A program made the translations under genes and the position numbers. This document shows positions 955 to 64,000 of a stretch of DNA of 64,000 nucleotides, in pieces. Numbering within the stretch: the stretch's first letter is position 1; the number at the start of each line of letters is the position of its first letter. The notes under the pieces are model-generated. The model was not told the origin of the DNA, did no database searches, and was given only the letters and a program-made list of their open reading frames with translations. The stretch is from the sequence record MW349128.1. One strand, written 5' to 3'. The stretch is from Staphylococcus phage Machias.

Positions 955-1578
955 ATGCCAAAAGAAATAGATTTAACTTCAGAAAAATTTAAAGATTATT
1001 CATATAACGAATTAAACTCAAGAGGTTCACAATTAAAAGATGGTAATTTAGATTTAGAATTTGAATTAGCTTCAGTTAAAAAATACTTTTTAGATAATGT
1101 AAATAAAAATGTAAGATACTTTAAAACTTATAAAGAAAAAATTAACTATTTAGTAGATAATGATTATATTGATGGAGATATGATCAAAAATTATGATTTT
1201 GAATTTATTAAAGGATTAATGAAAGAATTAATGGCTTATAAACATAGATTCACTCGTTTATTAGGAGCTAAAAAATTCTATGAACAGTATGCAATGAAAG
1301 ATGATGCAGGAGAAATCTTATTAGAACTATATGAAGATAGAATTTTATTTGTAGCTTTATATTTAGCTGACGGTGATGAAGAATTAGCTAGAAATATTGC
1401 TAATGAAATTATTACAGGAACTTTCCAACCTGCCACACCAACATTCCTTAATGCAGGTAGAGTACGTTCTGGAGAATTAGTAAGTTGTTTCTTATTAACT
1501 ATGGAAGACTCTTTATCATCTATTTATAGAAATATCTCTAATGTAGCTCAATTAAGTAAACGTGGTGGAGGCGTAGGT
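955..1578 (+). CDS. nrdE: Ribonucleotide reductase class Ib large subunit NrdE, exon 1 (ends after ...SKRGGGVG)
   Basis: ATP-cone-less class Ib N-terminus; conserved GGGVG block at ~1567-1578; the reading frame then runs into intron sequence (KLYTFH stop); exon ends on a U. Confidence 0.8.
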
Positions 1579-2560: not shown

Positions 2561-2683
2561 ATTAGTTTAAGTAATTTACGTGCTGACAATGATCCAATTA
2601 AAGGTGTTGAAGGTGCAGCTTCAGGTGTAGTTCCAGTTATGAAAGTATTTGAAGATACTTTATCATATGTAAATCAACTGGGT
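2561..2683 (+). CDS. nrdE: NrdE exon 2 (41 codons: ISLSNLRADNDPIKGVEGAASGVVPVMKVFEDTLSYVNQLG)
   Basis: Not in the ORF track; translation aligns with the universally conserved RNR large-subunit segment (NLSRLRA...GVVPFMKVFNDTARYVDQGG in E. coli NrdA); bridges exon 1 to exon 3 in frame. Confidence 0.75.
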
Positions 2684-2845
2684 TAATTTTAATGGCTCAG
2701 TATAAATATTGTTAATTGCTGGAAAAGTTTACAAGCTTAATCAGCATCAATCAAGATGATTGTTCAACGACTAAATATAATAATACTTATTAATAGTATA
2801 AGATATAGTCTAATCTATATGAATTTCATATAGTTAATATAAATG
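2684..2845 (+). mobile_element. Mini group I intron nrdE-I2 (~162 nt, ORF-less)
   Basis: P ATTAATTGCTGG (2712-2723), Q TTAATCAGCATC (2746-2757), R GTTCAACGACTAAAT (2762-2776), S AAGATATAGTCTAAT (2800-2814); ends ...ataaatG| at 2845; splices VNQLG to QRNGAGALYLNIFH. Confidence 0.7.
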
Positions 2846-14005: not shown

Positions 14006-15199
14006 TTAAACATATTTTAAATCTAGAATATTTTTAGCTGCATTTAAATCTCTATCAAGAACTACATCACAATTAGGACAATCATGAGTATCATCACCTA
14101 AAACTAATTTCTCTTTATTAGTTCTAACATAACCACATGATGAACATGTCTGTGTAGTCTTTTTCTTAGTAATAATATTTAATTCATTATCATAAAAATT
14201 AGATTTAAATTTTAATTTTTCTAAAAAATCATACTTACCAAATCTTCTATTAGAACGTCTAAGATTTCTGAATCTATCAGATATTTTATGTGGATATGGT
14301 TCTATATTGATTACTTTATAATTTTTAACTAACCAATTAGTAATTTTGTCCCTATGATCTTCCAACATATCATATTCTCTATTATAAGACTTTCTTAATT
14401 GTTTTAAAAGTTTGTAATATGATTTTGAATAATATTTTTTTCTATCTAATTTAGATTTAATTTTTTCAGTTTTTCTTTCTTGTTTCCATAGAATATTCGG
14501 TATTTTAAATTCAAATACTTGACCGTTTGAGTCTACAGCAGCTAAAGGAGTTTTTATCCCCATATCAATACCAATTGAATAATTATTTTCTCTCTGTTTC
14601 TTATAATTGATTATCTCATAAGTTATAGAGATGTAGAATTTTTCATTCTTTCTGCTTATGGTGTAATATTTAAAATTAATATCGTTAGAGTTAATAAATT
14701 TTAAAGATTCCTTAGTTTTAATAACAAAAGGTTTAATTCCTTTCATTGCAGAAACTCTTATCCATTTTTTAGATAAAAATTTTACAGGTAAACTTAGTTT
14801 ATCTTTAACTATAAATCTAAATGAATCGTTAGAATATTTTTTCTTTTTAAATTTAGGTTTAAATTTATCACTATCTATATAATTTTTAGATTTTCTAGCT
14901 TTACTCTGCATTTCATAGTATTTAGAAAAAGTCTGATTTAGATCTTTTAAAGCTTCTTGTCTAACCATACTATTAACTTCATAAAGATAAGGATAATTTC
15001 CAGAATTTTGAATTTCGTTGTTTAATTTCTTTTGAAAATCAAATCCACTAAATTTCTTATCATCATCAATATTCTGATAATCTTCTAAAGCCATATTCCA
15101 TACTTTTCTTCTTACACCAAAGCATTTATTGAAATAATTCTTTTGGTCTTGATTTGGGTATATTCTAGTTTTGAAAGATTTAACTATTCCTTTTTTCAT
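14006..15199 (-). CDS. tnpB: TnpB (IS200/IS605-family OrfB) RNA-guided-nuclease-like protein, 397 aa
   Basis: RuvC-I GIDMGIKTPLAAV, zinc finger CSSCGY...CPNCD, RuvC-III DRDLNAAKNI; strong RBS aggaggtg; no tnpA present. Confidence 0.85.
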   Translation of the reverse strand: MKKGIVKSFKTRIYPNQDQKNYFNKCFGVRRKVWNMALEDYQNIDDDKKFSGFDFQKKLNNEIQNSGNYPYLYEVNSMVRQEALKDLNQTFSKYYEMQSKARKSKNYIDSDKFKPKFKKKKYSNDSFRFIVKDKLSLPVKFLSKKWIRVSAMKGIKPFVIKTKESLKFINSNDINFKYYTISRKNEKFYISITYEIINYKKQRENNYSIGIDMGIKTPLAAVDSNGQVFEFKIPNILWKQERKTEKIKSKLDRKKYYSKSYYKLLKQLRKSYNREYDMLEDHRDKITNWLVKNYKVINIEPYPHKISDRFRNLRRSNRRFGKYDFLEKLKFKSNFYDNELNIITKKKTTQTCSSCGYVRTNKEKLVLGDDTHDCPNCDVVLDRDLNAAKNILDLKYV

Positions 15200-15249: not shown

Positions 15250-15300
15250 TGATATGAATTTTTTATCAGTATTTTATACAATCTCTAAATTAGTAATTTA
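15250..15300 (-). repeat. IS605-type left-end subterminal hairpins
   Basis: Perfect palindromes CTGATAtgaattttttATCAG and CTCTAAATTagtAATTTAGAG just 5' of tnpB. Confidence 0.4.
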
Positions 15301-15304
15301 GAGC

Positions 15305-15410
15305 ACAGACTATATCATACTCATTGATATGAGTGAATATATTTAGTCGTTGGACAAGTCTTATTGACTTGATGCTGATTGAGATAATAATCTATTCCAG
15401 CAATTAATAT
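15305..15410 (-). mobile_element. Group I intron catalytic core (mini-intron family copy) on the minus strand
   Basis: Reverse complement contains ATTAATTGCTGG, AATCAGCATC, GTCCAACGACTAAAT, ATGATATAGTCT in the same order and spacing as the other mini-introns. Confidence 0.65.
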
Positions 15411-15442
15411 TCTTTGCTAATTAAAATTACTTTTAATAGGGA

Positions 15443-16354
15443 CTATTTGTGTGAATAATCCGGATAATACATTGATGCACCATCTAAATGTTCCATAAAG
15501 TTACCTACAATACCACCAATAACTGGCATATTTGCTACCATATCATTAATACTATCTTTAATAGTTCTAGTAATTTTACCTAAAATAGAAGCTCCACCAA
15601 TACGAGCCATTTCTTTTTGTTCTCGTATTTCTTGGTTTTTATTATTAACTTGAGAAGCAATATCAGATTGATTATATTCATGCATTGCAGATTCTGATAT
15701 ACTAGTTGATTTATCTGCATAGTAAGCTAGTCCATAGTTTTTATCATCTTGTAGAGATCCACCTAGATCAAATGATCCTTTTAAACCCATTGATGCATGA
15801 ACTTGAGAAGCCATAGTTTGTACGTATTTATAATATTCAGCCATTTTAGGTTCAAAGCTTATCATACGACCATCTTTAGTATTACCGATACCTACTAAAG
15901 ATAAACCAGAGTTTACTAATCTATCCATTCCTTCACCAAAACTCCATAATTTACCTTCTCCTGGTTTACCAAATAATTTACCATTTAATTTAGGCATACC
16001 CGGCATTATAAATACTAAAGGTAAATCTAATTCAAATGTTCTTTTATATATTCTTCTATTAGGATCATCTAAACTAGAATAGTACATAGGCATTCCAAAT
16101 ACATCTAGTTCACCTTTAACATTTCTTAATTGTTTTTTATCTTTAGCATTTTTATCTGTTAAATATTCAGTTGCTTGTCTTTGATTACCCAAAGCATCCA
16201 TAAAAGCACCAGTATCTTTTTGAGTAGGATCATATTCATGATAGTCATAATCACCTTTTTTCTCATCAGCTTGAGGTATTAAAGCCATATCATCATCTGC
16301 CACTTTTAAAGGTTCTTGTTCCTTAGACTCTTTTTTATCTTTTTCTTCAGCCAA
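15443..16354 (-). CDS. hypothetical protein (303 aa; TTG start) of the leftward virion module
   Basis: ORF from the track; its stop lies ~9 nt before the predicted 5' end of the IStron-like intron. Confidence 0.5.
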   Translation of the reverse strand: MAEEKDKKESKEQEPLKVADDDMALIPQADEKKGDYDYHEYDPTQKDTGAFMDALGNQRQATEYLTDKNAKDKKQLRNVKGELDVFGMPMYYSSLDDPNRRIYKRTFELDLPLVFIMPGMPKLNGKLFGKPGEGKLWSFGEGMDRLVNSGLSLVGIGNTKDGRMISFEPKMAEYYKYVQTMASQVHASMGLKGSFDLGGSLQDDKNYGLAYYADKSTSISESAMHEYNQSDIASQVNNKNQEIREQKEMARIGGASILGKITRTIKDSINDMVANMPVIGGIVGNFMEHLDGASMYYPDYSHK

Positions 16355-16455: not shown

Positions 16456-19400
16456 TTATTTTCCTGAGAAAACAGGTATAGCTGGTCTAACGTCAATAAC
16501 AAATCTATCTCCATAAGAATCTCTAATTGCTTCTTGTAAATCTTGATTACCTGTAGATGGATCTTGACTTGAACCATCAGGAGTATAAGGATTATTAGGA
16601 TCATTAGGATTATTAGGGTTGTTTGGATTATTAGGATTTGATTGATTATCATTTCCATTATTATTGCTATTATTTCCATTAGAACCATTAGATCCATTAG
16701 AACCATTATTTCCATTAGATCCATTTTGACCGTCTTTACCGTTATTAATAATATTAGGATTTTCTTTAATAATTTTTTCAAGCTCTTTTTGAATATCTTT
16801 AATAATTACATTACCTTTAGAATCTACTAAATCACCTTTATTATTAATAATAGTATTAGAAATATTTGTTGTATTTCCATCTTTATTAATATTTTTACCT
16901 TTAAAGGACATATCTTTAAGTTGTTCTAACATTTTGGCAGTATTTTTATCAATATTGCTTGTATGTTTAATTATATTATCTAAATCCATACGTTTTTGTG
17001 GATCTACTTTCATAGGTCCTTTATTTTCATAATTTACTTTAGAATTATTATAATTATTAGTAATATTATAGATATTTCTTACTGTATTATTATTACCTTG
17101 TATAGTTTGATTTGTAATGGAATTATTATTAGTTGTAGGTTTACCATTATTATAATTATTATTGATAACCGTAGAACTATTATTTCCTCCATTATTAATT
17201 ATACTAGAATTATTCTGGTTATTATTAACATTTCCTTGACTTCCTGAAGATGATTGATTGTTACCATCAGCTCCAGAACTATATGAAGGTGATGAACCAT
17301 CTTTACCGTCTTTTCCATCAGAACCATCTTTACCAGATGATCCTTCTGAATCGTCAGATGATGAACTTGATCCACTTGAAGATCCAGATTCTGTAGCTTC
17401 CTTACCTGCTTTAGCTTTAAGTTCAGCCTGTTGTTCTTCATCTATCTTTTTAGCTTCTTCATAGTCAATTCCATAAATTCTAGCATAACGTTTCATTAAT
17501 CTATCATTTAAAGCTTCTTGTTCTTCTTCATCCATACGGTTATCATCTCTACCAGTAATAGAACCGTACCAAGTACCATTTTTGAAACTATATTCAGAAG
17601 CTCCAGCAGAAGATCCATTAGAGTCTCCTCCTTCACTATCGCTTCCACCTATTTTATCACTACCATCTAGAGGTTTACCTGTATCATCAGGACCACCGCC
17701 GCCATATCTCATTGTAATACCAATTTGTAATCCCATTTTTTGGTATTTATTTGCAGGAGTTACAGCAACACCATGACCATAATATGATTCAACTTGTTTT
17801 CCTCCACCTATATACATAGTAACATGGTTATCGTTATCACATAAAGTAATATCACCAATTTTTTTCTTAGTGCCTTTACTTATTTTTCTAAATTTAGTAC
17901 CACCATCTCTAAAAGTAAAAGTGGTAGCATTAATATCCATTTCTAAACCAGCTTTTTTGAATGAACGAGCAATTAAACTAGAACAGTCAAATGAATTTTT
18001 ACCTTGTCTATTTGACTGAGAGTATGTTGCACCATCTTGAGCTATTGCCCATTGTACTGCTTGTTTAATTTTATCTCTTTCAGATCCACCGGATCCTCCA
18101 CCTTTACCATAAACTCCACCAGTAATAGTAGGTTTTTCTAAAACTAAACCAGTTTTTCCAACTTTTTTATTTTTATTAGATGTAGATGATACCATATTTG
18201 CAAATTGATTAACGTTCGTATCACTATAAACAGTACTAGAACCTCCACCTTTAGCTTTAGTGGATTTCTTAGATGAACCCCCTAGTTTATCTAACCATTT
18301 TTTAGCGTTTGATTGTCTTTCAGGAATAACTTTAACTCCTGCACGTTCATACAAATTCTCCCATACAACTGTTGCTTCATCAACATTCTTAGCTTTCTTA
18401 ATAGCAGACCAAGCAGCAGATTCAGATCCTTGAAGTTCATACCACATGAAGTCTAACTGAGCATCAAGATCAGACCATTTCTTACCTTTCTTTTCAGCAA
18501 ATGCTTTAAGATTATCTTTACGATCATCCCATTGAGCTAGTCCTTTACCTCCGACCCAACCAGAGTTTTGTTCGGCACCGGGATCCATTTTGGATTCACG
18601 TTCAAAGTTACCTAATATACCTGCTATCTGATGATCTTCTAACCCTTTTTCAGCAAAGAAATTCCATACTTTAGATGCAACATCTTTACCATCAACACTT
18701 TCTGCTCCTCCATCAGATGATCCTTCTGAAGAAGAACTTCCTGATGAACCGGCCATGAATCCTGCCATAATATCATTCATCATTCCGCCAAGTTTATCAA
18801 ACCAATCACCAATTTTGTTTACTACTTCACCATCAGGATCAGTTATATCTTTTTTAGATTTTTTCTTTTTCTTCTTACTTAATAAAGAATAGAAAGGAGA
18901 TAATCTTAACATAGTTTCAGCCAATTTTTTAGGAGCTTTTTTAAGTTTACTCATTAAATTATTAGGCATCATTTTATGCATTTTTTCACTAATTTTACCC
19001 ATGATAGATAAAGGAGAATTTTTCATTACTCCATTAACATCTTTCTCGATATTATCTTTAGTTTTATTAGTTGACTCTTCTACTTGTTTTTTAGCATCTT
19101 TACTAGCTTTATCAGACATTCCTTGCATTTCAGCCATTTCTTTCTTAGCTCTTTCAGATGCATGATCTTCAATACCTTCTTGATAAGAACCTAATTCTTC
19201 TTTACTAGCTTCCACCATTTCACGACTTTGATTAGACATATCTTCTTCATGAGAAGAGAATTTGTCATCAAGGAATCCTGATAAGTTTTTAGCTAAGCCT
19301 ATTCCACCTTGAATAAGATTAGAAGTAGCTCCGACCATATTACTAATTCCTTTTCCAGCCATAGCTAAAGGTGCCATTAATAACATTGAAGCTCCACCTA

Positions 19401-22200
19401 CAGCTTTTTTAATTAAACCACCAAAACCTTCAGATTTTTCTTCCATCATACTATCAGTAGAATCACCAAATCCTTTAGCCATTCCAGTAGTTTTTTGTAC
19501 CATATTCATACCTAGACCAAAAGCAGGTTTTACAATTCCTTTATAAAGTCCAACTCCAGCTAATCCCATTAAAGGAACTTGAGCTAATAAAGGATTGTCT
19601 TTAATAAAACTTCCAATTAATGAAGAACTATCTTTATCACCAGTTAATTTAGAATCAACTAAAGGATCAACACTAAATTTAGCATTTTCACCGTTAGGTT
19701 GCTCTGAATCTAATTTCTCTTGTTCTTTTTTCTGTTTTGCAGGGTGATCATTAAAACCTATAAAGCTTCCTAAAGTTTTAATTGGATGTTTAAGAGATTC
19801 AATTGGATGTGCTATAGTACTCATTATTTCAGGAGCAGACAATAATATAGATAAAGGTAATCCTACACCAGTTGCGGCCAGTCCTACTCTTGAACCTACT
19901 TTCAAACCAGCTTTAACTATACCTTTACCGGCTTTAGATCTCATTAATTTACTTCCAACTTTACTTGCACCAAATTTACCTTTAGCTTTATTTCTTAGTT
20001 TAGAACGTAATCCTCTTCCAGCACCAGATAACAAAGCTCCACCAGCAGCAAATTTACCGGCAAGTGATTCACCAGCACCTATAACACTTTTACCAATTTT
20101 AGTATTAGCCATTTTACTATCTAATACTTTTCTTTTAAGTTTATCTTTATCAATATCTTTAATTTTATCTTTAGCTTTTTCTTCTATTTTATCTTTAATC
20201 TCATCTTTTAATGGATTATCTTCTTTTTCTTCTTGTTGTCTATTTACTTCAGAAGCATGAGCTTCATTACTATCTGAGATCAAAGTAGATTTTTGTTTAT
20301 CTTTATTATTTAAATTATTTCCATTATTAGAATTAGAAGAATTATTAGAATTAGAAGACTTAGTATCTTTAATATCATCCAATTTTTCTTTAATTTCATC
20401 AAATTTACTATCTTGTTTTTGACTATCTCCAGATACAATATTATTATTATCATTTTGTGAAGATTGTTGATTATTTTTTCTTACATCTAGTTTATCATTT
20501 ATTCTAGATACAATATTTTTAATTTCACTTATATCGCTATTGATAATATTAAAATTAATGTCAGAAAATTCATTGTTACCTTTAGAAGCATATGACTTAG
20601 GTTTTTGACCTTTATCATTAACTGCATTTATAGTACTTCCGCCAAGATTTTTTCTAATTGATTTAGATTTTTGATTCAATTGCATTCTAGCTTTAGTTAA
20701 ACTAGTTTTTACTTCTTTATCTTCAAATAGCTCTTCTAAAAGACTATTTACATTAGATGACTTAGTTTTAACTTTATCACTATCTTTAGAACTATTAACA
20801 TTTTCACTAATAATATTTTTTACTAATGATTTATAATCTTTAGAGTCTATATTTTTATCTTTAGCTTTACTTTCAACTCTTTTAAAGAATTCAGAACTTT
20901 CAATAGTTTTATCTATAGATTTTTTAATTTCATCATTAATAGTTTTAGATGTTTTAAAAGATCCTGAATCATAATCATAATGAATTTCTTCACCATCTTC
21001 AGAAGTTAAACCAACTATTTTAGATAAATAACCAGGAATAACTGTATTAATAGTACTATGTGTTTCAACATCAAAAGCTACTCTTTCATTTTTATTCTTT
21101 TTATTTGCTGTTGAAATTCCACCATCTATATTATTAAATAATTTATCTATAAGTTTGCTTTTCTGTTTATCTATGAAATCACGATTAGTTTTCTTCTTAT
21201 CTTCTTTATTTTCATCTTTAGTAAATACCGTTGACATATTTGTTAGCTTTTCACTAATTTTATCACTGTTTATTATATCAAAAGCTTTACCTTTAGCACT
21301 GTCTAAAAGTCCACCTTGTATGCCTTTAGTTCTACTCCCAATAATATCTTTAACTAATTCAATACCTTGTTTTTTAGCAAATTCTTTAGCTTTATCTTTA
21401 AAACCATCTGCTTGACTACCACTTAGTATATTAGAAAGAGTTATATTAGATAAGAACAAATCTTCTAAAGAATTACTATTTTTAATTTCACTTATATTTT
21501 TTACAGATGTATTATTTCTAATATCATTACTAGTTTTGATTAAACCTGTTAATCCTTCAAATAAATTCTCTCTAACATTATCATTAGTTTCTCTCATGTA
21601 ATGAAGAGTTTCCATTAAATTATTAAAACCTGTGGCATTAATTTGAGATAAATTAGATATAGAAGAAGTTAAAAGAGCAGAAGATTTAGCTGAAGATGAA
21701 TTATCATTAATTACTGTTGTTGATGAAATGACTTCAGATTTATTACTTTCTTCTTCATCAAAATCATCGAAAGAAAAATCTCCTATTTCATCATTATCTG
21801 AATTTTCATCACTCATATCAAAATCATCAAAGCTACTGAAATCAAAATCATCGCCCATATCCATTGTTCCGCCATCTAAATTGGATGATTTATTTAAAGC
21901 TCCTTTATCTATGATCGTTTCACCAGTTTTTAAAGTTCTTTTAGTACTTTTAAGAGCTTCTTTAGATAAATCTTTCCCAGTTTCAGTTAACTTCTTAAAT
22001 TGTTCTTTTCTATTATCTTTAACTTCTTTGATAGCTTTTAAAGGATTATTGTTATCAATAAGTTTTTTCATATTGTTTGATTTCATGTTATTCAAATTCT
22101 TTTTGAATTCATTATCAATGTATTTTCTAGAAGAATTAGAAGAGGAGTTCCTATTGAACTCTCTTTCTAATTTCTTATTATTAAATTTATCTTTAGCCAA
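16456..22200 (-). CDS. Giant (1914 aa) tape-measure-like virion protein with lysozyme-like and CHAP/NlpC-P60 peptidoglycan hydrolase domains
   Basis: Gly-rich hydrophobic segments typical of tape-measure proteins; GLAQWDDRKDNLKAFAEKKGKKWSDLDAQLDFMWYEL (phage tail lysozyme-like); NSFDCSSLIARSF...HVTMYIGGG (Cys/His CHAP-like); low-complexity S/G/N/D linkers. Confidence 0.75.
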   Translation of the reverse strand: MAKDKFNNKKLEREFNRNSSSNSSRKYIDNEFKKNLNNMKSNNMKKLIDNNNPLKAIKEVKDNRKEQFKKLTETGKDLSKEALKSTKRTLKTGETIIDKGALNKSSNLDGGTMDMGDDFDFSSFDDFDMSDENSDNDEIGDFSFDDFDEEESNKSEVISSTTVINDNSSSAKSSALLTSSISNLSQINATGFNNLMETLHYMRETNDNVRENLFEGLTGLIKTSNDIRNNTSVKNISEIKNSNSLEDLFLSNITLSNILSGSQADGFKDKAKEFAKKQGIELVKDIIGSRTKGIQGGLLDSAKGKAFDIINSDKISEKLTNMSTVFTKDENKEDKKKTNRDFIDKQKSKLIDKLFNNIDGGISTANKKNKNERVAFDVETHSTINTVIPGYLSKIVGLTSEDGEEIHYDYDSGSFKTSKTINDEIKKSIDKTIESSEFFKRVESKAKDKNIDSKDYKSLVKNIISENVNSSKDSDKVKTKSSNVNSLLEELFEDKEVKTSLTKARMQLNQKSKSIRKNLGGSTINAVNDKGQKPKSYASKGNNEFSDINFNIINSDISEIKNIVSRINDKLDVRKNNQQSSQNDNNNIVSGDSQKQDSKFDEIKEKLDDIKDTKSSNSNNSSNSNNGNNLNNKDKQKSTLISDSNEAHASEVNRQQEEKEDNPLKDEIKDKIEEKAKDKIKDIDKDKLKRKVLDSKMANTKIGKSVIGAGESLAGKFAAGGALLSGAGRGLRSKLRNKAKGKFGASKVGSKLMRSKAGKGIVKAGLKVGSRVGLAATGVGLPLSILLSAPEIMSTIAHPIESLKHPIKTLGSFIGFNDHPAKQKKEQEKLDSEQPNGENAKFSVDPLVDSKLTGDKDSSSLIGSFIKDNPLLAQVPLMGLAGVGLYKGIVKPAFGLGMNMVQKTTGMAKGFGDSTDSMMEEKSEGFGGLIKKAVGGASMLLMAPLAMAGKGISNMVGATSNLIQGGIGLAKNLSGFLDDKFSSHEEDMSNQSREMVEASKEELGSYQEGIEDHASERAKKEMAEMQGMSDKASKDAKKQVEESTNKTKDNIEKDVNGVMKNSPLSIMGKISEKMHKMMPNNLMSKLKKAPKKLAETMLRLSPFYSLLSKKKKKKSKKDITDPDGEVVNKIGDWFDKLGGMMNDIMAGFMAGSSGSSSSEGSSDGGAESVDGKDVASKVWNFFAEKGLEDHQIAGILGNFERESKMDPGAEQNSGWVGGKGLAQWDDRKDNLKAFAEKKGKKWSDLDAQLDFMWYELQGSESAAWSAIKKAKNVDEATVVWENLYERAGVKVIPERQSNAKKWLDKLGGSSKKSTKAKGGGSSTVYSDTNVNQFANMVSSTSNKNKKVGKTGLVLEKPTITGGVYGKGGGSGGSERDKIKQAVQWAIAQDGATYSQSNRQGKNSFDCSSLIARSFKKAGLEMDINATTFTFRDGGTKFRKISKGTKKKIGDITLCDNDNHVTMYIGGGKQVESYYGHGVAVTPANKYQKMGLQIGITMRYGGGGPDDTGKPLDGSDKIGGSDSEGGDSNGSSAGASEYSFKNGTWYGSITGRDDNRMDEEEQEALNDRLMKRYARIYGIDYEEAKKIDEEQQAELKAKAGKEATESGSSSGSSSSSDDSEGSSGKDGSDGKDGKDGSSPSYSSGADGNNQSSSGSQGNVNNNQNNSSIINNGGNNSSTVINNNYNNGKPTTNNNSITNQTIQGNNNTVRNIYNITNNYNNSKVNYENKGPMKVDPQKRMDLDNIIKHTSNIDKNTAKMLEQLKDMSFKGKNINKDGNTTNISNTIINNKGDLVDSKGNVIIKDIQKELEKIIKENPNIINNGKDGQNGSNGNNGSNGSNGSNGNNSNNNGNDNQSNPNNPNNPNNPNDPNNPYTPDGSSQDPSTGNQDLQEAIRDSYGDRFVIDVRPAIPVFSGK
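16560..16740 (-). repeat. Short tandem repeats (CCATTAGAWCCATTAGAACC-type units) encoding (GSN)n and (PNN)n
   Basis: Visible 9/15-nt periodicity; protein C-terminus GSNGNNGSNGSNGSNGNNSNNNGNDNQSNPNNPNNPNNPNDPNNP. Confidence 0.5.
17300..17620. repeat. ~300-bp dispersed repeat copy A, shared between the two giant genes (partner at 22680-22940)
   Basis: ~85-90% nucleotide identity; encodes EYSFKNGTWYGSITGRDD(N/R)RMDEEEQE(A/E)LNDRLMKRYA(R/K)IYGIDYEEAKKID... in both proteins. Confidence 0.6.
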
Positions 22201-43946: not shown

Positions 43947-43954
43947 AATATATT

Positions 43955-43990
43955 CCCCTAATACTATTAATTTAGTATTAGGGGAAAATT
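43955..43990. terminator. Bidirectional terminator
   Basis: CCCCTAATACTA-ttaatt-TAGTATTAGGGG. Confidence 0.6.
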
Positions 43991-43998
43991 ATTATTTT

Positions 43999-44274
43999 TT
44001 ATTTCTTACTGTCTAATTCAGCTAATTTTAATTTAGCTTTAGTCGCATATTTTTGACGGATTATATCACGCCATTTTTTACGAGCACGAGCAGCTTTTTG
44101 ATATTTAAAGTAAATTGGATCTTGAGCTTCTTTAGCAGCAACTAAAGCTAATTGGTTCAATCTACGTTTACGTTTAGTTTGTTCATCTAAACGCATGATA
44201 TTTTGCTCACGTAAAAGAGCTTCATCAGTAGCTTTCATAATTTGCTCTTCTAGTGGAGATAAATTATTAGACAA
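43999..44274 (-). CDS. small basic protein (91 aa)
   Basis: K/R-rich ORF on the minus strand. Confidence 0.4.
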   Translation of the reverse strand: MSNNLSPLEEQIMKATDEALLREQNIMRLDEQTKRKRRLNQLALVAAKEAQDPIYFKYQKAARARKKWRDIIRQKYATKAKLKLAELDSKK

Positions 44275-44406
44275 AATATTTCACATCTCTTTCTTAGATT
44301 TATTTAGTTTATTAATAAATAGTATGTTTTGTTAATGATAGTTTAAAAATTTTAATAATAAAGAATAACTAGATTTTTATAATTATGTAGGAGGTTAGTA
44401 AACCAA

Positions 44407-45430
44407 ATGACAACAGAATTAAAGAATAAAGAAGAAAGAAAAAGAGCTTTAACTGGATATTTAGAACAATTGGTATGGATGGTTCAAAAGAATAATCCTG
44501 ATTTTGATAAAGAAGAAATATTAAAAGAATGTAGAGAATTTGTAAAAGAAAATGTTAAACCTGTTATGACAGAGGTATCAGGTCAAGAAATGAATGTTGA
44601 TTCTTTATTACGTACAGTTATTAATTCAAATTTAATAGTAACTGGATCAGGTTCGATTTATCAAACACAATCACAAAGAAAAAATTTAAATGCAGAGATG
44701 TTAAAAGACTTCATTGATTCACGTAAAGTAGCTAAACATAATATGTTTATAAGTAAAGGTGTAGACGATGTTAAATATCATAAATATATGAATGAACAAA
44801 AAACAATTAAGATCTTGGCTAATAGTTACTATGGTGCTATGATACAAGGAAATAGTATTTTCTATGATCCTTATTCAGGACCTGCTATCACATATAGTGG
44901 TGTTGATATTGTTACGACTTCAGCAATAGCTTTAGAAAGATTTATAGGTAGTAAAATATTCTTTATGAATATTAGTGAGATTTATAATTATATCGTAAGA
45001 ATATGTCAAGAAGAATATAAAGATCATGATATTAAGATAAATTCAGTTCCTACTGATAATGAAATATTAAAAGGTTTATTGGATAACGTAGAATATAATT
45101 TCTCTGAAGATGAAGAAAATGATTTAAAAGAATTCTTTAGTAATTTAACTCAAGATGAGAAAAATAGAGTTTATTTTAAAAATAATCTTTATGGTTTATT
45201 AGATCACACTGATATATTTGATAATAAAATTAGTAAAATGACAGGTAGAGAAGATTTCTTAGATCCGAACGAACCACCTGAAGATATGATACCATTATTA
45301 GATGAATTATTTGATATATTAGAAGACTGGGTTATTTATAATTATCAAGATTACAATAGAATGTATAGAATGAATTATAAAAAACGTAGAAGTGTACTTA
45401 CAATCGATTATGATAACATGGTCGCTGCTT
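44407..45430 (+). CDS. Family-B DNA polymerase, C-terminal half, exon 1 (motif B to motif C); no exonuclease/motif-A region in this gene
   Basis: Kx3NSxYG motif KILANSYYGAM; following IFYDPYSGPAITYSGVD (compare RB69 FRYYDLRNATAITTFGQ); motif-C-like VLTIDYDNM at the very end; strong RBS taggaggt means it is an independent start. Confidence 0.65.
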
Positions 45431-45591
45431 AAAGTAATTTAAGTTGATTCACATTATTAATTGCTGAGAAAGTATTTATTAAATTAATCAGCATCAATCA
45501 ATATGATTGTTCAACGACTAAATATAATGATACTCATAAAGAGTATATGATATAGTCTATTTTATATTTAAAAATATAATATTAAAGACAG
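45431..45591 (+). mobile_element. Mini group I intron polB-IA (3' end uncertain: 45591, 45603 or 45612)
   Basis: 5' aaagtaatttaagttgat..., P TTAATTGCTGAG, Q TTAATCAGCATC, R GTTCAACGACTAAAT, S ATGATATAGTCTAT; the in-frame continuation has no stops. Confidence 0.6.
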
Positions 45592-45840
45592 ATAGTAACT
45601 TCGTACATTTAGATCCATTATATCAAAAAATGAAAGAAAAGAAACCTGAAGATTTCCCTATTGCAGAAAATGGTTTAGAAGATAAATTAGAACAACGTGT
45701 AGGTAATATATCTATTATTAACTATCAAATTACTAAATTGCTAGAATTATCTTATCATAGATTCTGTAAAGATTTAGGATTAGAAGATGAACATTTAGGT
45801 GTTATATCTATGAAAAATGAGTATGTAAATGCTCCAGTAT
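45592..45840 (+). CDS. DNA polymerase B exon 2 (~83 aa)
   Basis: Open frame ...LDPLYQKMKEKKPEDF...NEYVNAPV joining exon 1 and exon 3 in frame. Confidence 0.55.
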
Positions 45841-45996
45841 ACAGTAATGTGTATTAGTAAATATTATTAATTGCTGAGACAAAATAAAATTAATCAGCAT
45901 CTTCAAATAATGAAGTTCAACGACTAAATATAATAATTCTTAATAATAAAGAATATGATATAGTCTAGTCTTATATTTAAAATATAAGTATAAACG
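45841..45996 (+). mobile_element. Mini group I intron polB-IB
   Basis: 5' acagtaatgtgtatt..., full P/Q/R/S set; 3' end ...ataaacG|; the E2(t)+tt+E3 junction reads ...NAPV-F-LLDKQ in frame. Confidence 0.65.
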
Positions 45997-46697
45997 TTTT
46001 ACTTGACAAACAGTTAACAACAGATAAAAAGAAAACTTATGCTTCATCAGTAATTCAACAAGAGGGTAATTTAGTTCAACCACCAGACTTAGATGTTAAA
46101 GGTATGGCTATTAGAAAAGTTAATACTAATAAACGTATTAGAGAATTATTTACTGAAATATTACAAAAAGATATCTTAGAAAATAAAACTGGAATTGATA
46201 GAATTGGAATTATACGTAAATATAAAGAAATTGAAGAAATGATTAAAAAATCATTAGAGAATGGTGATATTGAATTCTTAAAACCTGGTAAAGCTAATAA
46301 CGCAGAAGTATATAAAGATCCTTATACACAAATGAATTATAGAGCAGCTTTATCATGGAATTTAATGTATCCAGATAAAGAAATATCTCTTCCAGCAAAT
46401 ATCTTAATGGTTAAATTAAATATTAAATCATTTGGAGATATTAAGGATAAAGTTGATGATGAAGAATTATTAGATAAATTTAGAGAAGTATTTAGAAACG
46501 AAAGATTAGTTAAAAATGGAATGAATGTAATTGCAGTTGAAGGTAATACAATTCCTGAAGAATTTAGACCTTTTATTGATTATGATTCAATGATAGAAGA
46601 TCATATTAAACCAGGTAAAGATATTATTGAATCTATTGGAGTTAAAGTGTTAGAATCTTCAAATAGTTCTTTCGTATCAAATATGGTTAAATTTTAA
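45997..46697 (+). CDS. DNA polymerase B exon 3 (C-terminal thumb; KGxxxRK = KKRY-like motif)
   Basis: ...PPDLDVKGMAIRKVNTNKR... in the same frame as the track ORF 46104-46697, open upstream to the splice site. Confidence 0.6.
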
Positions 46698-49805: not shown

Positions 49806-50979
49806 ATGAAAGTAGATATGATAGATATTGAACAAGTCATAACTGATACAAATGCTAAAGAAGTAACCAATCCTGTATTTTTCGATTCAGGTATACTACC
49901 AAAAGAAGATGGTTTATTTTCATATGATATATTTGGTTTAATAGGTACTCCTGAAAGAAAAACCAATTTAGGTTGGATTAATTTAAAGGATAAATACCTT
50001 AATCCGGTGGCTTATAAAGCATTAAAAGATTTAGATAAAAATATTGAACTATGTATTCAGGGTTCAGAGTATTTTAAAGTAGAAAAAGGTCAATTAGTTC
50101 CTTCAGAAGATGGAGATACTGGACTGAATTTCTTATATGAAGTATTTGATGATTTAAAATTTAGAAAGAATGATTCTCGTATTAGATCTGAAAAAATTGA
50201 TATGATTAAAAATACAGATAAGCAAAAAATATTTGTAGATAAATGGCTAGTAATACCTGCTTTTTATAGAGACTTTAATCCTAATGAAACTTCAGGAGAA
50301 ATTCAAGATACTGAAGAAGTTAATAATATGTATTCTTCTATTATACGTTCTGTAGATGCTATTAGTTTTAATTCTTTTGGTTTTATTGCTAACAGTACTA
50401 AATATAATATACAAAATACATTATTTGAAATATATCAGAAATTTACTTCAGGAGAATTATCAGGTAAAACTGGTTTTATGCAAAAACGTATATTGGGTAA
50501 AACAGTAGATAATAGTACTCGTGCAGTTATTTCTTCACCTAAAATTAATTCGAATAGATGGGATGAAATGCAGATAGAGTTTGGTGAGTTAGGTGTACCA
50601 TTAACTCAATTAGTTACCTTATTTTTACCATTCTTTAATAAGTATATAATTGATTTTATTGAACTTCATAAAGATGCTTTCCAAACAGCTACTGGAAATG
50701 ATGAGAAAGAATTATCATTAGAAGAAGTGTATGAACAATTCGATGATAAATCTATTAAGAATATGCTAGAATTCTTTATTAAAGATCCTAATGAAAGATT
50801 TAGTCCTATATATGTAAATGATAGAGAAGGTAAACGCCATAAAGTTAAATTATTTGAAAAAACTTTGGGTAGAGATTTTACTGTAATTGATTTACTTTAT
50901 ATTGCTGCAACCGAAATAGTAGAAGATAAGCATGTTATGTATTCAAGATATCCGATTAATAAAATGGTCGCTGCTTAAA
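49806..50979 (+). CDS. Multisubunit RNA polymerase beta-prime-like subunit (N-terminal half), exon 1
   Basis: LPKEDGLFSYDIFG (compare KPERDGLFCERIFGP), GWINLKDKYLNPV (compare GHIELASPTAHIW), KRILGKTVDNSTRAVISSP (compare GKRVDYSGRSVIVVGP); no Zn finger, as in phiKZ/AR9-type phage RNAPs. Confidence 0.7.
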
Positions 50980-51140
50980 GTGATTTAAGTTGATAAACAT
51001 TGTTAATTGCTGAAATACTATTAATAAAGTTAATCAGCATCAATTAAATATAATTGTTCAACGACTAAATGCAATGATACTATTTAATAGTATATAATAT
51101 AGTCTAATTTATATAATACTTATATAAATATAATAAATGC
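50980..51140 (+). mobile_element. Mini group I intron rpoC'-IC (3' end uncertain, 51139-51156)
   Basis: 5' aaagtgatttaagttgat..., P/Q/R/S set, S at ~51100-51108, ...ataaatG at 51139. Confidence 0.6.
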
Positions 51141-51341
51141 GAAAATTTCTTGAACGTAGCACCTGCTAAAATTAAAATATTAACTACTGTTGATACTATT
51201 CCAGAAATAATTTTAGATGATATAGTATTAAAAGATTACCCTAAAGTAGTAAGAGAGTATCCTGTTGATGAAGATATTTTCTTAGATACTGCAATCATAC
51301 ACAATTCATATGCTCAAGCACTTGGTGCAGATTTTGATGGC
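51141..51341 (+). CDS. beta-prime-like exon 2, ending in ...HNSYAQALGADFDG (first part of the catalytic NADFDGD motif)
   Basis: ADFDG followed by an intron; the frame is open back to ~51120. Confidence 0.6.
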
Positions 51342-51491
51342 AAAATTTTATATTACCATCATTAAATAATATTAATTGCTGGAAAATCTAATAAGATAAT
51401 CAGCATCAACTTAATAAAAGTTGTTCAACGACTAAATATATTACTAAAGAAGATATAGTCTAATTATATGTAAATACATGTATATAAAATG
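51342..51491 (+). mobile_element. Mini group I intron rpoC'-ID, splitting the DFDG|D catalytic motif
   Basis: P ATTAATTGCTGG 51372, Q, R GTTCAACGACTAAAT, S AAGATATAGTCTAAT ~51450-51464; ends ...aaaatG| 51491; next exon begins DMISIRSLWSVEA (compare [14 protein letters not shown]). Confidence 0.65.
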
Positions 51492-51617
51492 GATATGATT
51501 TCAATACGCTCTTTATGGTCTGTAGAAGCAAATAAAGAAGCTGATAAACTTATTAATAAGAAAACTAATTACTTAAACTACACAGGAAATAGTATACGTG
51601 GAGTTGGTAATGAGAGT
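51492..51617 (+). CDS. beta-prime-like exon 3 (42 codons DMISIRSLWSVEANKEADKLINKKTNYLNYTGNSIRGVGNES)
   Basis: Completes the NADFDGD-like motif and aligns with the segment after it in bacterial beta-prime; not in the ORF track (<60 aa). Confidence 0.6.
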
Positions 51618-51759
51618 AAGTTTGTATGCTCTCAATAAATTTCATTAATTGCTGGAAAAACAAAATTAATCAGCATCAACTTAATAAAAGTTGTTCAACG
51701 ACTAAATATGAAAATGATTTAAATATCATAAGATATAGTCTAATTATCATAAATATATG
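51618..51759 (+). mobile_element. Mini group I intron rpoC'-IE
   Basis: 5' aagtttgtatgctc..., P AATTGCTGG 51647-51655, Q, R, S ~51730-51744, ...aaatatatG|. Confidence 0.55.
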
Positions 51760-51792
51760 GTACAAGCTTTATATTCTTTAACTAAAGAATAA
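51760..51792 (+). CDS. beta-prime-like terminal mini-exon (VQALYSLTKE-stop); boundary tentative
   Basis: In frame with exon 3; resembles ...AERLYRSGLA; followed by a terminator. Confidence 0.35.
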   Translation, partial: VQALYSLTKE

Positions 51793-61734: not shown

Positions 61735-61796
61735 AATTAAAATTCTATAATAACGGAAAATTATAGTAGTATAACTAGGAGATGAAATTAGATAAT

Positions 61797-64000
61797 GAAA
61801 ATTAAACGATTAAAGTTAGTTAACTTTATAGGTATATATGCTGGGACAGGTCTTAAAGAAATTGAGATAGACTTCAGTAAGAGTAAAAATAATATGATAA
61901 TGCTACTTGGAAATAACGGATCTAGTAAGACTGTGATACTTTCACAACTAAGTCCGTATAGAACTTCTAATGATAATCGTAAGACAATTACGATTGAAGG
62001 AGAAAAAGGAGTTAAAGAAATCGATTATATTAAAGGTAATGATGTATATAAAATTAAACATCATTATGGTAAAAATAGTTCTCAGAATAAATCATTTATT
62101 AAAAAGAATGATGAAGAATTAAATGAAAATGGTGGCATTAAACTGTTTAATGAAATAGTTGATAATGAATTAGACGTATCACAAGAATATTTCACAGTAG
62201 GTAGATTAGGAGATAATGTATCTAACTTTATAGACTATACTACAGGTGATCGTAAAACATATATTAACAAATTTGTACCTAATATTGATAAGTATTTAGA
62301 AGCTTATAAAGTTGCTAATGAAAAGAAAAAGCTTATTGATAAAGATCTTAAGTCATTAAGATTTGATTTAGATAAATATAAAGAATTTGATGAAATTAAG
62401 AAAGAAAAAGAAGTACTAGAAAATTTAATTAATGAAATTCAAGATGAATTAGATAATGCTAATAAAGAAAAGACTTCTAATGAGACCAAATTAAATTCTA
62501 TTATGGAAGAAAAGTATAATGAAATTCATCCAACTCAATTAAAAGAAAATTTAATTAATGAACTTCATGAACTTGAAAATGAATTAGAAAAAGAAAGAAA
62601 GTTAAAAGAATCTAATGAAAATCTAAATAATTATACATTAGAATCTGCTAATGAAAAGAAAGAAAAAGTATCTTCTATACTTAATGAAGTTCATACAAAT
62701 TTAACATCAACTAAAAAGGATAAAGAATCTAATCAAGATAAATTAGATGATTTAATTAGTAGAAAATCTAAAATTGAATCTAGAATGAATGCTATTAAGT
62801 TCAATGAAGATTATGATGCTTCACAGGAAATTGATGAAATTCTTCAATCATATAAAGATGATCTAACTGATTTAGATAATGATATAGATGTTGCTAGAGG
62901 ATCCTATTTCAATAACTTTAATATTAAAATTAAAGATAATATTGAAGTTAATACACTTAATTTATATATAGATAACCTATTAAATAAAGTTAATAAATTC
63001 AAGAGTCTAGTTAATGATAATAAATTTAAATATAATGATATTCATGGAGATTTTGAAACTGAAATTAAATCTAATAAAGAAAAAATTTCTATGAACCTAA
63101 ATGAAGCTAATGAACTTAATACAAGTCTTAATCAAATTAAAGGTAAATCAGATTTACTTAAAATATTAGAACAAAAAGATCATGAACATTATAAAGAATG
63201 TGTATTTGTACCTTTAGTAGTTGATTTTAAAGATAATGAATATGATTCAATTGATAAATTGGAAACTAGAGTTAATGAACTTTATGAAGAAAATAATCAG
63301 TTAGAAAATGATAATGAACTTCTTTCTAATCATATCGATATATTAAATCAATTTAATTATATTAAAGAAGATGTCGATTCATTAAACGAATATTTAGGTT
63401 TTGATATTATTACTATGGATAATATTAAAGAGATATTTATTAATAATAGCTCATTTACTAATGAAGAAAATAGCTTGAAATCATTATCAGATAATGTTAA
63501 TGAAATTAGAACATCTGAACGCAATAGAGATGAATTATCTAAAGAATTGGAAAGAAAAAGATATGCGTTTAAAGAAGATCATTCTAATCAAAAATTAATG
63601 AATCAATATAACGAAGATAAAGCTGAATTAGAAAAGCAGATTGAAGAAGTTAAAAGTAATAAAGATAATATCTTAGAGAATCTTAATGAACTTAATGCAA
63701 AGAAAGATAAAGGACAAAATACTTTAGACATTATTAATGAATTTATTAATTTAACAGAAAAGTCTGATGAAATTAAATCTAACATTAAAGATAAACAATC
63801 TAATATTGATGAAGTTGATAAAGATTTAAATAATTTAAGTAGATTATATGAACTTAATCAACAATCAGATAGTAAGATTAATTCTATTAAAGATAATTTA
63901 ACTATGAAGAAAAATGATTTAGAATCTACTAAAGAAAAATACTTTACAGTAAATACGATTATTAATAAGATTGATGATATTGAGAAAGTATTATGGAAAT
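61797..64000 (+). CDS. SbcC/Rad50-like (T4 gp46-like) recombination/repair ATPase, 3'-truncated by the window end
   Basis: N-terminal Walker A LLGNNGSSKTVILSQL followed by >600 aa of uninterrupted coiled-coil-type sequence; RBS aactaggagatg; no stop before 64000. Confidence 0.65.

Follow-up and report, generated by a model that had tools for sequence, protein, structure and literature searches.

A gene for the C-terminal subunit of a probable two-subunit family-B DNA polymerase, interrupted by two very small group I introns, in Staphylococcus phage Machias

The polymerase locus and its exon borders

The window analyzed here, a 64-kb stretch of the Staphylococcus phage Machias genome (MW349128.1), carries on its plus strand a polymerase gene in three exons separated by inserts of 179 and 174 nt. 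The open reading frame begins at ATG 44407 and ends with the stop codon at 46695–46697, and the strong ribosome-binding site ascribed to it in the preliminary description of the locus can be read from the sequence as a plus-strand Shine-Dalgarno AGGAGG (44389–44394), 12 nt 5' of the ATG. Directly upstream, the list of open reading frames has a small conserved minus-strand gene (43999–44274), which also precedes the polymerase gene in PALS_2, MarsHill, SA1, and AR9 (gp152) and is separated from the preceding plus-strand gene by a bidirectional intrinsic terminator (43953–43986; a 14-bp stem followed by a T tail on either strand). Both features had been described as lying where an exonuclease or motif A region might have been expected, and the position of the minus-strand gene rules out a fused N-terminal part of the polymerase. 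A scan for sigma-70 promoters gave no signal above shuffled expectation, but is uninformative because the phage has its own RNA polymerases.

The two short inserts that had been noted in the reading frame were confirmed, and their borders could be fixed from intron-less homologues, as tblastn with the PALS_2 protein, which is uninterrupted, gives an alignment spanning both inserts. Exon 1 (44407–45408, plus strand) encodes residues 1–334, comprising a helical extension at the N-terminus, the fingers, in which motif B lies, a long helical insertion in the palm, and motif C's first half (ending LTID); its tblastn border is refined by the P1 pairing, which places the splice site after U45408. Exon 2 (45588–45822, plus strand; 235 nt) encodes residues 335–412 and the first base of codon 413, and opens with the T-D-S of motif C. 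Exon 3 (45997–46697, plus strand) encodes residues 413–645 and the stop codon, aligns to RB69 703–762, and contains a strand of the palm, the KKxY motif, and the thumb. The absence of the inserts from relatives is exact: PALS_2 lacks both, and PB50 (96% identical) lacks precisely 45823–45996 (174 nt) and reads MKNEFLLDK. The predicted spliced junctions, GAU/ACA (AUCGAU/ACAGAU) and GAGU/UUUU (AAUGAGU/UUUUACUU), bring back the invariant D334-T335-D336-S337 and K410-N411-E412.

The placement of the catalytic motifs both upholds and amends the preliminary description. Motif B was correctly recognized as K-I-L-A-N-S-Y-Y-G (KxxxNSxYG; 44809–44835, plus strand), which aligns to motif B of the archaeal family-B polymerases (PolB) and whose K135, N139, S140, and G143 do not vary among 17 homologues. 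Motif C had been read as IDYDN at the end of exon 1, with the first intron directly after it. The YDNMVAA-stop portion of that reading is translation running on into intron 1, and the intron lies inside the motif (TID/TDS), cutting T-I-D-T-D-S between D334 (45406–45408) and T335 (45588–45590). Motif C is whole only after intron 1 is removed, and D334, T335, D336, and S337 are all invariant in the 17 homologues. Similarly, KGMAIRK had been proposed as the equivalent of the PolB KKRY motif, but the invariant K-K-x-Y is K-K-T-Y (46029–46040, plus strand; ten codons into exon 3; K, K, and Y invariant in 17 homologues) and KGMAIRK is the next conserved block.

Group I character of the inserts and their wider family

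Judged from sequence by their fold, splice-site rules, and covariation, both inserts classify as ORF-less group I introns, in agreement with the initial reading of them as mini group I introns. Intron 1 (45409–45587, plus strand; 179 nt) has the internal guide sequence (IGS) GGUCG and a terminal G at 45587, and intron 2 (45823–45996, plus strand; 174 nt) ends with G45996; at 21–22% G+C, both retain all core helices P1–P9 and a GNRA loop (GUAA) on P2. In P1 of intron 1, CGAU/UAUG pairs with CAUGGUCG and U45408 pairs with G, while in intron 2 GAGU/AU pairs with AUGCUC and U45822 pairs with G, giving each a U.G wobble at the 5' splice site. The P, Q, R, and S core elements are AAUUGCUG, AAUCAGCA, GUUCAACGACUAAAU, and GAUAUAGUC, respectively. 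The centroid fold of intron 1 recovers P1, P2, P4, P6, P7, P8, and P9 (fold z-score −1.8), and the fold z-score of intron 2 is −3.5. Intron 1 is absent from PALS_2, MarsHill, and SA1, and the site of intron 2 is also occupied by an intron in MarsHill, LY01, and AH12.

Searched in E-value mode over 801 nt, both introns align end-to-end with the Rfam group I model RF00028 (intron 1, 29.9 bits, E = 1.3e-5; intron 2, 17.3 bits, E = 0.081), though both scores are below the gathering threshold of 50 bits, a shortfall explained by peripheral helices that are missing or short and not by the core. A default Rfam scan of the whole window at the gathering threshold returned zero matches, and the family covariance model R1 scores the two introns at 136 and 126 bits. 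Since the standard scan misses every mini intron, annotation of this phage group under-calls them. Other explanations of the inserts were rejected: inteins by the in-frame stop codons within the inserts, translational bypassing because the inserts, at 174–179 nt, are much too long for it and are accounted for by their group I fold, and group II introns because the inserts are too small and without diagnostic domains.

Seven copies of the element were found in the window with R1, five of them outside the polymerase gene. One (2684–2845, plus strand; 162 nt, 137 bits) interrupts a ribonucleotide-reductase-like gene at VNQLG/QRNGAGA, and another (15267–15457, minus strand; about 191 nt with an uncertain 3' border, 133 bits) lies between the ORFs 15443–16354 and 14006–15199. 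The remaining three are on the plus strand in the gene for the N-terminal portion of the virion RNA polymerase beta' subunit: at 50957–51139 (183 nt; 82% identical to polymerase intron 1, with which it shares the IGS and the 5' exon CGAU), at 51342–51491 (150 nt; inside the catalytic motif as ADFDG/D, without P2, with a P8 of about 1 bp and a C.A splice-site pair), and near the 3' end of the gene at 51618–51759 (142 nt). Family members are 140–191 nt long with 19–27% G+C, and 18 copies score 96–137 bits with R1; the model has no match in the PALS_2 and SA1 loci, which are intron-less. All 16 delimited members end in G. In the family alignment, 88.5% of cells are paired, compared to 32–46% with the partners slid; fitting the alignment to the model inflates the former percentage somewhat. 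Covariation scores 0.43, compared to at most 0.08. Double-sided changes occur in five of six pairs in P3, all five in P8, and five of six in P6, and the core sequences of P4 and P7 do not vary among the 18 copies.

The family is unevenly distributed among the relatives. A blastn search with the whole 2.5-kb gene region matches roughly 10–30 places in each genome of the Machias-like, MarsHill-like, and LY01-like phages, whereas in PALS_2, S6, DC4, and SA1 it matches one place, the gene itself. The most closely related copies occupy unrelated genes that share only the 4–6 nt pairing with the guide sequence: CGAU precedes the intron in PolB motif C, at one beta' site in the window, and at another beta' site in LY01, and CUGGGU precedes it in the ribonucleotide reductase gene and in the PolB N-terminal half. 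Such shared sites would fit spread by reverse splicing or by endonucleases acting in trans, and not classical homing. Tentatively, the polymerase introns may be assigned to a group I intron family that is proliferating and whose members are ORF-less and ultra-compact (140–191 nt), a family that appears to be undescribed so far; the literature on the smallest or minimal group I introns yielded no usable size comparison.

Compact group I introns are known from the Azoarcus tRNA-Ile gene (~205 nt) and from phage Twort (orf142-I2, ~250 nt), and these, like the Machias introns, have the P1–P9 core, the P3/P7 pseudoknot, and a GNRA tetraloop on P2 and contain no ORF. The Machias introns are shorter (174–179 nt; family 140–191 nt) and extremely A+U-rich, and, unlike Azoarcus and Twort, some members of their family lack P2 and nearly all of P8. 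To our knowledge, introns of 174–179 nt at 21–22% G+C are smaller and more weakly paired than any group I intron that is self-splicing, and autonomous splicing is not assured given this size and weak pairing. It is possible, if unlikely, that the inserts are group I-derived but need a phage or host protein, or the ribozyme of another intron, for folding or catalysis. Such dependence would suit their very small size (down to 140 nt in the family) and A+U-richness, the absence of the peripheral elements that usually stabilize the core, the P8 of about 1 bp in four family members and the loss of P2 in several, as well as the sub-threshold Rfam scores and the modest fold z-score of intron 1. Against it, both polymerase introns keep all of P1–P9 with the GNRA loop on P2, the P4/P7 core is unvarying across the 18 copies, and no maturase-like ORF was found in or next to the introns in the ORF list or by Pfam on the neighbors. 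Pfam on the seven neighboring ORFs likewise found no free-standing homing endonuclease adjoining the polymerase gene.

Far less probable is that the inserts are non-splicing mobile insertions, with the gene yielding three separate polypeptides or decaying as a pseudogene. The same locus is annotated in AH12 as three separate hypothetical proteins, and ATG codons are available at 45630 and 46104. Translation from these internal starts would lose TDSNFVHLDPLYQK, with the catalytic D336, and LLDKQLTTDKKKTYASS, with KKxY, however, and there is no Shine-Dalgarno before 45630. The exons are free of stops and frameshifts and are 75–100% identical to intact homologues, the inserts satisfy group I structure and splice-site rules, and the same family interrupts NADFDGD in the virion RNA polymerase, an enzyme that would be non-functional without splicing.

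A C-terminal polymerase subunit and its partner

The spliced protein is the C-terminal subunit (fingers, the rest of the palm, and thumb) of a split PolB. It matches Pfam PF20286 (divDNApol) at 178.1 bits (cut-off 25.7) and PF00136 at 43.2 bits (cut-off 23; E = 3e-11), and a profile search of the PDB matched 126 PolB chains, with residues 92–194 aligning to archaeal PolB 450–549 and residues 415–475 to RB69 703–762. The preliminary description called for a structural comparison with the RB69 polymerase. An AlphaFold2 model of the spliced protein (pLDDT 82) was compared to the PDB with Foldseek, and the top matches were all PolB (RB69, T4 gp43, Pol delta, Pol alpha, and archaeal), with RB69 and T4 gp43 the best. 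The match probability was 1.00 (best E = 2.9e-6), with low TM-scores (0.3–0.37) attributable to the insertion and to domain pose.

The earlier suggestion that the gene covers only the C-terminal half of a PolB was therefore supported by Pfam, profile, and structural matches, and by what is missing from the protein. Neither Pfam nor the PDB profile search found a PolB match before residues 72–92, and comparison of the 17 homologues shows no conserved acidic residue in residues 1–91 and none that is invariant or near-invariant before G82; the exonuclease domain and motif A are both absent.

The proposal that the N-terminal half is separately encoded is borne out in relatives, by a gene present in AR9 (gp131) and in nine Staphylococcus phages. 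AR9 gp131 terminates in DFDLSSLYPS, its gene is on the same strand as that for gp151, about 15 kb further downstream, and homologues occur in all nine of the Staphylococcus jumbo phages, with the AH12 copy at 97% identity. The spliced AH12 N-terminal half aligns in a PDB sequence search to the RB69 exonuclease domain (107–339) and motif A (404–436), and Pfam gave no PolB exonuclease match for it. In the 64 kb, tblastn with AR9 gp131 found no exonuclease or motif A coding sequence, and the window end shows no overlap at the DNA level with the AH12 N-half locus. A plus-strand gene for an SbcC-like ATPase (61795–64000; tblastn with AR9 SbcC, 49% identity) has its frame open to the window end and runs off it, and serves as a synteny marker: the polymerase N-half comes after SbcC in AR9 and DC4. 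By this synteny, the gene for the N-terminal subunit (exonuclease and motif A) is predicted to lie just past the window end.

The least credible reading is that the 645-residue protein is self-sufficient, with a cryptic motif A among its first 90 residues and a gp131-like protein acting solely as proofreading exonuclease: group 1 jumbo-phage polymerases without a fused exonuclease, which is 'encoded elsewhere', are described (Iyer et al., PMC7824862) and the Asp in MNVDSLLRTVI faintly resembles DxxSLYPS, but NVDSLL was rejected as a motif A as this Asp is not conserved, the canonical DFDLSSLYPS is found in AR9 gp131 and in the AH12 N-half segment aligned to RB69 404–436, and mutation of the PhiKZ motif A residue D562, located in DNAP-N, abolishes synthesis (PMC13648687).

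Known systems, deposited annotation, and implications

A close parallel is Bacillus phage AR9/PBS1, in which gp151, the catalytic C-terminal half, is orthologous to the Machias protein (36% identity over 88% of its length) and gp131 holds the exonuclease and a partial catalytic domain, with the split point as in Machias, after motif A and before the fingers. The neighborhoods also correspond: a small minus-strand gene upstream, a deoxyribonucleotidase and the virion RNA polymerase beta' gene downstream, and SbcC followed by the N-half further on. AR9 gp151 is uninterrupted where the Machias gene has two mini introns, and the introns seen at the AR9 locus are large and carry homing endonuclease genes, in contrast to the ORF-less introns of Machias. 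Petrov, Ratnayaka and Karam are said to have described, in J Mol Biol in 2010, a PolB split into gp43A and gp43B in two T4-related Aeromonas phages, 44RR and 25, the latter with a group I intron in its 43B gene. Those halves are adjacent cistrons of a recent split, whereas here the halves are 15–23 kb apart and the split is common to the whole lineage.

The split PolB of PhiKZ, DNAP-N (gp82) and DNAP-C (gp50), has been solved by cryo-EM as a stable 1:1 complex with a composite active site, to which DNAP-N contributes D562 of motif A and DNAP-C D426 of motif C (Basu et al. 2026 preprint, PMC13648687). Its palm-insertion domain is formed by the DNAP-N tail, DNAP-C 1–98, and DNAP-C 221–419 (PMC13648687); the DNAP-C parts, about 98 N-terminal residues and an insert of about 200 residues, are matched in Machias by the 1–91 extension and an insert at roughly 180–325. 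PhiKZ DNAP-C falls in the same Pfam family, PF20286, though at great sequence distance (~20% identity to chimallivirus-type homologues), and PhiKZ is a nucleus-forming phage for which the preprint text makes no mention of introns (PMC13648687).

It should be noted that the split polymerase and its introns are already known, as both are in public annotation and split enzymes are available from AR9 and PhiKZ. In the deposited Machias record, the three exons are joined under the name 'DNA polymerase catalytic subunit [Staphylococcus phage Machias]', the same gene is joined from two exons in MarsHill, and in AH12, LY01, and PB50 the exons are annotated as separate proteins. Korn et al. 2021 (bioRxiv 10.1101/2020.12.14.422802) list DNA polymerase subunits among the intron-disrupted genes, with junctions from protein alignment only, and leave the class, structure, size, and family of the introns unanalyzed, which are given here. 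The spliced protein of this analysis is identical to the deposited one except at junction 2, deposited as NEY/LDK (644 aa) and placed here as NEF/LLDK (645 aa) based on group I rules and the intron-less alleles of PB50 and PALS_2. Junction 2 of the deposited Machias and MarsHill genes is probably misplaced by a few nucleotides.

The exon-intron borders, the folding of the inserts as group I introns, the homology to PolB, the lack of motif A, and the separate gene for the N-half in relatives, as obtained here, identify the locus, with a probability of about 90%, as the C-terminal subunit gene of a two-subunit PolB, interrupted by two group I introns, in an AR9/PBS1-like Staphylococcus jumbo phage. 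A single pre-mRNA would be transcribed from upstream of 44407 and would lose both ORF-less introns by RNA splicing, possibly autocatalytic in vivo, each through guanosine attack after the U of the P1 U.G pair and exon ligation after the terminal G. This would rebuild the catalytic DTDS hairpin of motif C and the strand preceding KKxY, giving the 645-residue protein. Because it has neither an exonuclease domain nor the motif A aspartate, that protein would have to pair with a separate N-terminal subunit; by analogy with the PhiKZ gp82/gp50 complex, the partner would supply the N-terminal domain, the 3'-5' exonuclease, and motif A, and the assembled subunits would complete the active site in Machias.

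Independent support is obtained here for a two-polypeptide replicase, sharing one composite active site, in the AR9-like Staphylococcus jumbo phages. The results also bear out that the most conserved catalytic codons are targets of mobile introns, as with DTDS of the DNA polymerase and NADFDGD of the RNA polymerase. Should the family splice autonomously, its members would be smaller than any other natural group I introns known to us to self-splice, some without P2 and with a P8 of only about 1 bp. The family offers naturally minimized group I ribozymes for studying the smallest functional core, and material for studying how ORF-less introns spread.

Layout of the gene and identity of its product

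The region at ~44.3–46.8 kb is 97% identical to its counterpart in phage AH12, 96% to PB50, and ~83% to MarsHill, Madawaska, PALS_2, S6, and DC4, with distant matches in the Bacillus phages AR9 and PBS1. Three plus-strand ORFs were listed here (44407–45432, 45630–45857, and 46104–46697), and the ribosome-binding site reported for the first is an AGGAGG in the Shine-Dalgarno position (44389–44394), 12 nt ahead of the ATG at 44407. Upstream, as also reported, lie a minus-strand gene from the ORF list (43999–44274) and a bidirectional terminator (43953–43986, both strands), with no polymerase half. Exon borders were set by a tblastn search of the window with the PALS_2 protein, which aligned in three plus-strand blocks: exon 1 (44407–45408), exon 2 (45588–45822), and exon 3 (45997–46697), separated by insert 1 (45409–45587; 179 nt) and insert 2 (45823–45996; 174 nt). 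The homologue is uninterrupted in PALS_2 (644 codons) and SA1 (650 codons) and annotated as two joined pieces in MarsHill. PB50 provides a natural control, retaining insert 1 while missing precisely the 174 nt of insert 2 and reading ..ISMKNEFLLDKQ.. across the site. Insert 2 interrupts the gene one base past codon 412, directly behind an invariant K-N-E.

By profile, alignment, and predicted structure, the spliced product is the C-terminal half of a family-B DNA polymerase (PolB), from motif B onward, as originally proposed. It matches the Pfam family PF20286, 'divergent family B DNA polymerase', with 178 bits (residues 320–642 to profile positions 384–704 of 705) and PF00136 over residues 72–177 (E = 3e-11). 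A profile of 17 homologues (26–81% identity) matched 126 PolB sequences in the PDB, aligning residues 92–194 with archaeal PolB 450–549 (fingers, motif B) and residues 415–475 with RB69 703–762 (KKRY, start of the thumb). The best Foldseek matches of an AlphaFold2 model (mean pLDDT 82, pTM 0.68) were all PolB, with RB69 and T4 gp43 leading (E = 2.9e-6, probability 1.0), though at the low TM-scores that a large insertion in a multi-domain protein would lead one to expect. In the alignment and the model, the protein begins with an extension of ~91 residues and carries an insert of ~145 residues between motifs B and C, both helical. The residues before ~72–92 matched no PolB and hold no acidic residue conserved among the 17 homologues, and thus motif A is absent.

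The preliminary description was correct in its observation and interpretation, but two of its motif assignments required correction. It had placed motif C ('IDYDN') at the end of exon 1, immediately before the first intron. While an intron does occur at motif C, 'IDYDN' belongs half to the exon and half to the intron, with 'YDNMVAA*' a read-through into insert 1. Exon 1 ends ..T-I-D (last codon GAU, 45406–45408) and exon 2 opens T-D-S, such that insert 1 lies inside the motif, between the two aspartates of D-T-D-S. These residues (D334, T335, D336, and S337) are invariant in the 17-homologue alignment, as are K135, N139, S140, and G143 of motif B, K410-N411-E412, and a K-K-x-Y. The latter is KKTY at 46029–46040, the actual KKRY equivalent, whereas 'KGMAIRK', to which that role had been given, is the next conserved block.

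The split, intron-bearing polymerase is already known: annotations of AR9 and DC4 show the split, the Machias record carries a three-exon join, and Korn et al. (bioRxiv 10.1101/2020.12.14.422802), who described Machias as an AR9-like uracil-DNA jumbo phage, listed DNA polymerase subunits among the intron-disrupted genes, predicted by protein alignment only. The deposited 'DNA polymerase catalytic subunit [Staphylococcus phage Machias]' (P0001; 644 aa) is reported as 100% identical to the spliced product except at junction 2, and the window is accordingly assigned to Machias or a phage indistinguishable from it. At junction 2, ..MKNEY|LDKQ.. stands in both deposited entries (Machias and MarsHill), while ..MKNEF|LLDKQ.. 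(645 aa) is what the rules for splice sites predict and what the alleles without the intron (PB50, PALS_2, and SA1) encode; on this basis, the public join appears to be shifted and one residue short. The exon end at this junction is GAG|U in intron-plus alleles and GAA U in intron-less PB50 and PALS_2. In AH12, LY01, and PB50 the exons are still annotated as separate proteins.

The N-terminal half and a probable two-subunit enzyme

The proposed resemblance to split polymerases of Bacillus phages holds for AR9, where the orthologue gp151 (641 aa, uninterrupted) is encoded on the same strand ~15 kb upstream of a separate gp131 (554 aa). The annotation of the latter is 'DnaQ-like 3'-5' exonuclease and partial catalytic domain', and its sequence closes with ..DFDLSSLYPSIIQAFNISPE.. 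followed by ~60 residues. The search for an N-terminal half elsewhere found none within the 64-kb window, but gp131 homologues are present as separate genes in all nine Staphylococcus jumbo phage records, 15–23 kb downstream of the C-terminal half. The SbcC-like ATPase gene at 61795–64000, open at the window end and 49% identical to AR9 SbcC over 242 residues, directly precedes the N-terminal-half region in AR9 and DC4; from this gene order, the Machias N-terminal half should start roughly 1–3 kb beyond the window. In AH12 it is interrupted as well, by a 154-nt intron of the same family eight codons past Exo I (FDIEVD), and the spliced protein aligns with RB69 gp43 residues 107–339 (exonuclease) and 404–436 (motif A; E = 4.9e-10).

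In PhiKZ, a B-family polymerase is formed by the stable 1:1 association of the orthologues gp82 (DNAP-N) and gp50 (DNAP-C), with the N subunit supplying the motif A aspartate (D562) and the C subunit that of motif C (D426) (2026 preprint, PMC13648687). The PhiKZ split point falls within a helical palm-insertion domain, composed of the N-subunit tail and C-subunit residues 1–98 and 221–419 (PMC13648687), and the ~91-residue extension and ~145-residue insert of the Machias protein have the same layout. By homology, the Machias enzyme would likewise work as two subunits. Full-length homologues (20–21% identity) were detected by tblastn in many group 1 jumbo phages, in agreement with the 'divergent clade of family B polymerases' of Iyer et al. 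(PMC7824862).

The inserts as members of a mini-intron family

A default Rfam scan of the window returned no match, and end-to-end alignment of the inserts to RF00028 (E-value mode on 801 nt) scored 29.9 bits (E = 1.3e-5) and 17.3 bits (E = 0.081), both under the 50-bit threshold. Both inserts hold the core elements P (AAUUGCUG), Q (AAUCAGCA), R (GUUCAACGACUAAAU), and S (GAUAUAGUC) and end in G. In P1, CGAU|UAUG of insert 1 pairs with CAUGGUCG and GAGU|AU of insert 2 with AUGCUC, and in each the U before the splice site faces a G. Minimum-energy and centroid folds recovered P1, P2 (GUAA loop), P4, P6, P7, P8, and P9. From these sequence features the inserts are identified as group I introns, upholding the claim of two mini group I introns in the gene.

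The same element occurs in seven copies within the window, with further copies in AH12, MarsHill, and LY01. The 16 copies delimited exactly span 140–191 nt (19–27% G+C) and keep hairpins P5, P6, P8, and P9 despite differing sequences, while P2 is absent in members below ~165 nt and P8 is shrunk to CUAAAG or CUAAG in four. A covariance model built from the copies (R1) scored 96–137 bits on 18 copies and found no match at the PALS_2 and SA1 loci, which have no intron. In the family alignment, which was fitted to R1 and so favours pairing, 88.5% of cells were paired (32–46% with partners slid) and the covariation score was 0.43 (≤0.08 with partners slid), values reached by none of 500 shuffles. 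P3 was paired throughout (100%), and 5 of its 6 pairs had changed on both sides; the same held for 5/5 pairs of P8 and 5/6 of P6, and P4 and P7 were invariant. In the unprocessed MAFFT alignment, the compensatory changes in P3, P6, and P8 could already be seen by eye.

Intron sites are conserved between phages with exons ~80% identical and include essential catalytic motifs, one of them ADFDG|D in the beta' subunit of the virion RNA polymerase. The first beta' intron shares 82% identity with polymerase intron 1, and an LY01 beta' intron at a third site shares 75%; the three have the guide GGUCG and 5' exon CGAU in common. The guide GCUCAG, together with CUGGGU|, is common to the intron of the ribonucleotide reductase (RNR) gene and the introns of the PolB N-terminal half. 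Such a distribution would be compatible with spread by reverse splicing guided by P1 pairing, or by endonucleases in trans.

Related introns in other genes and phages

The RNR-like gene (955–4300) has two interruptions. The first (~1600–2575) is larger, group I-like, and encodes an HNH/NUMOD4 homing endonuclease (ORF 1768–2394), its 3' ribozyme part including GATATAGTC at 2521; the second, downstream (2684–2845; 162 nt), belongs to the mini-intron family of the polymerase gene. The beta' N-terminal gene (49806–51792) contains three mini introns (183, 150, and 142 nt), of which the middle one, inside ADFDG|D, has a C at the 5' splice site opposite A (C.A); the same site in MarsHill and LY01 has U.G, with compensating P1 changes. 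A minus-strand copy of ~191 nt (15267–15457; R1, 133 bits) lies between ORFs 15443–16354 and 14006–15199, its 3' splice site ambiguous between two in-frame G positions.

In the LY01 beta' gene (L019, 26021–26367), two mini introns flank a 9-nt exon (TTTGACGGT, F-D-G), and thus the NADFDGD motif is built from three exons. The LY01 polymerase gene carries an extra ~1.85-kb insert (L019, 18108–19943) after ..TYSG (residue ~165), with a larger group I core (P/R/S at ~18230–18600) followed by a TnpB gene (18674–19822; OrfB_IS605 and Cas12f1-like TNB domains). Rfam in E-value mode reported nothing for this insert, which is an IStron-like element within a phage DNA polymerase gene.

The P/Q/R core pattern recurs in 12 uncultivated viral contigs (IMG/VR; L011, L014, L017, and L018 among them), several copies standing in tandem on single contigs. 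Their cores are longer (120–174 nt from P to S) than those of the Staphylococcus-phage introns (86–100 nt), which appear to be pared-down members of a broader lineage of phage introns. The DC4 paper states that Rfam gave no introns, consistent with their absence from DC4, and no description of the mini-intron family was found in the literature. The Azoarcus group I intron is ~205 nt. If self-splicing, the family members may be the smallest group I introns known to be so. The compact intron family may be new and is the part of these findings worth experimental follow-up.
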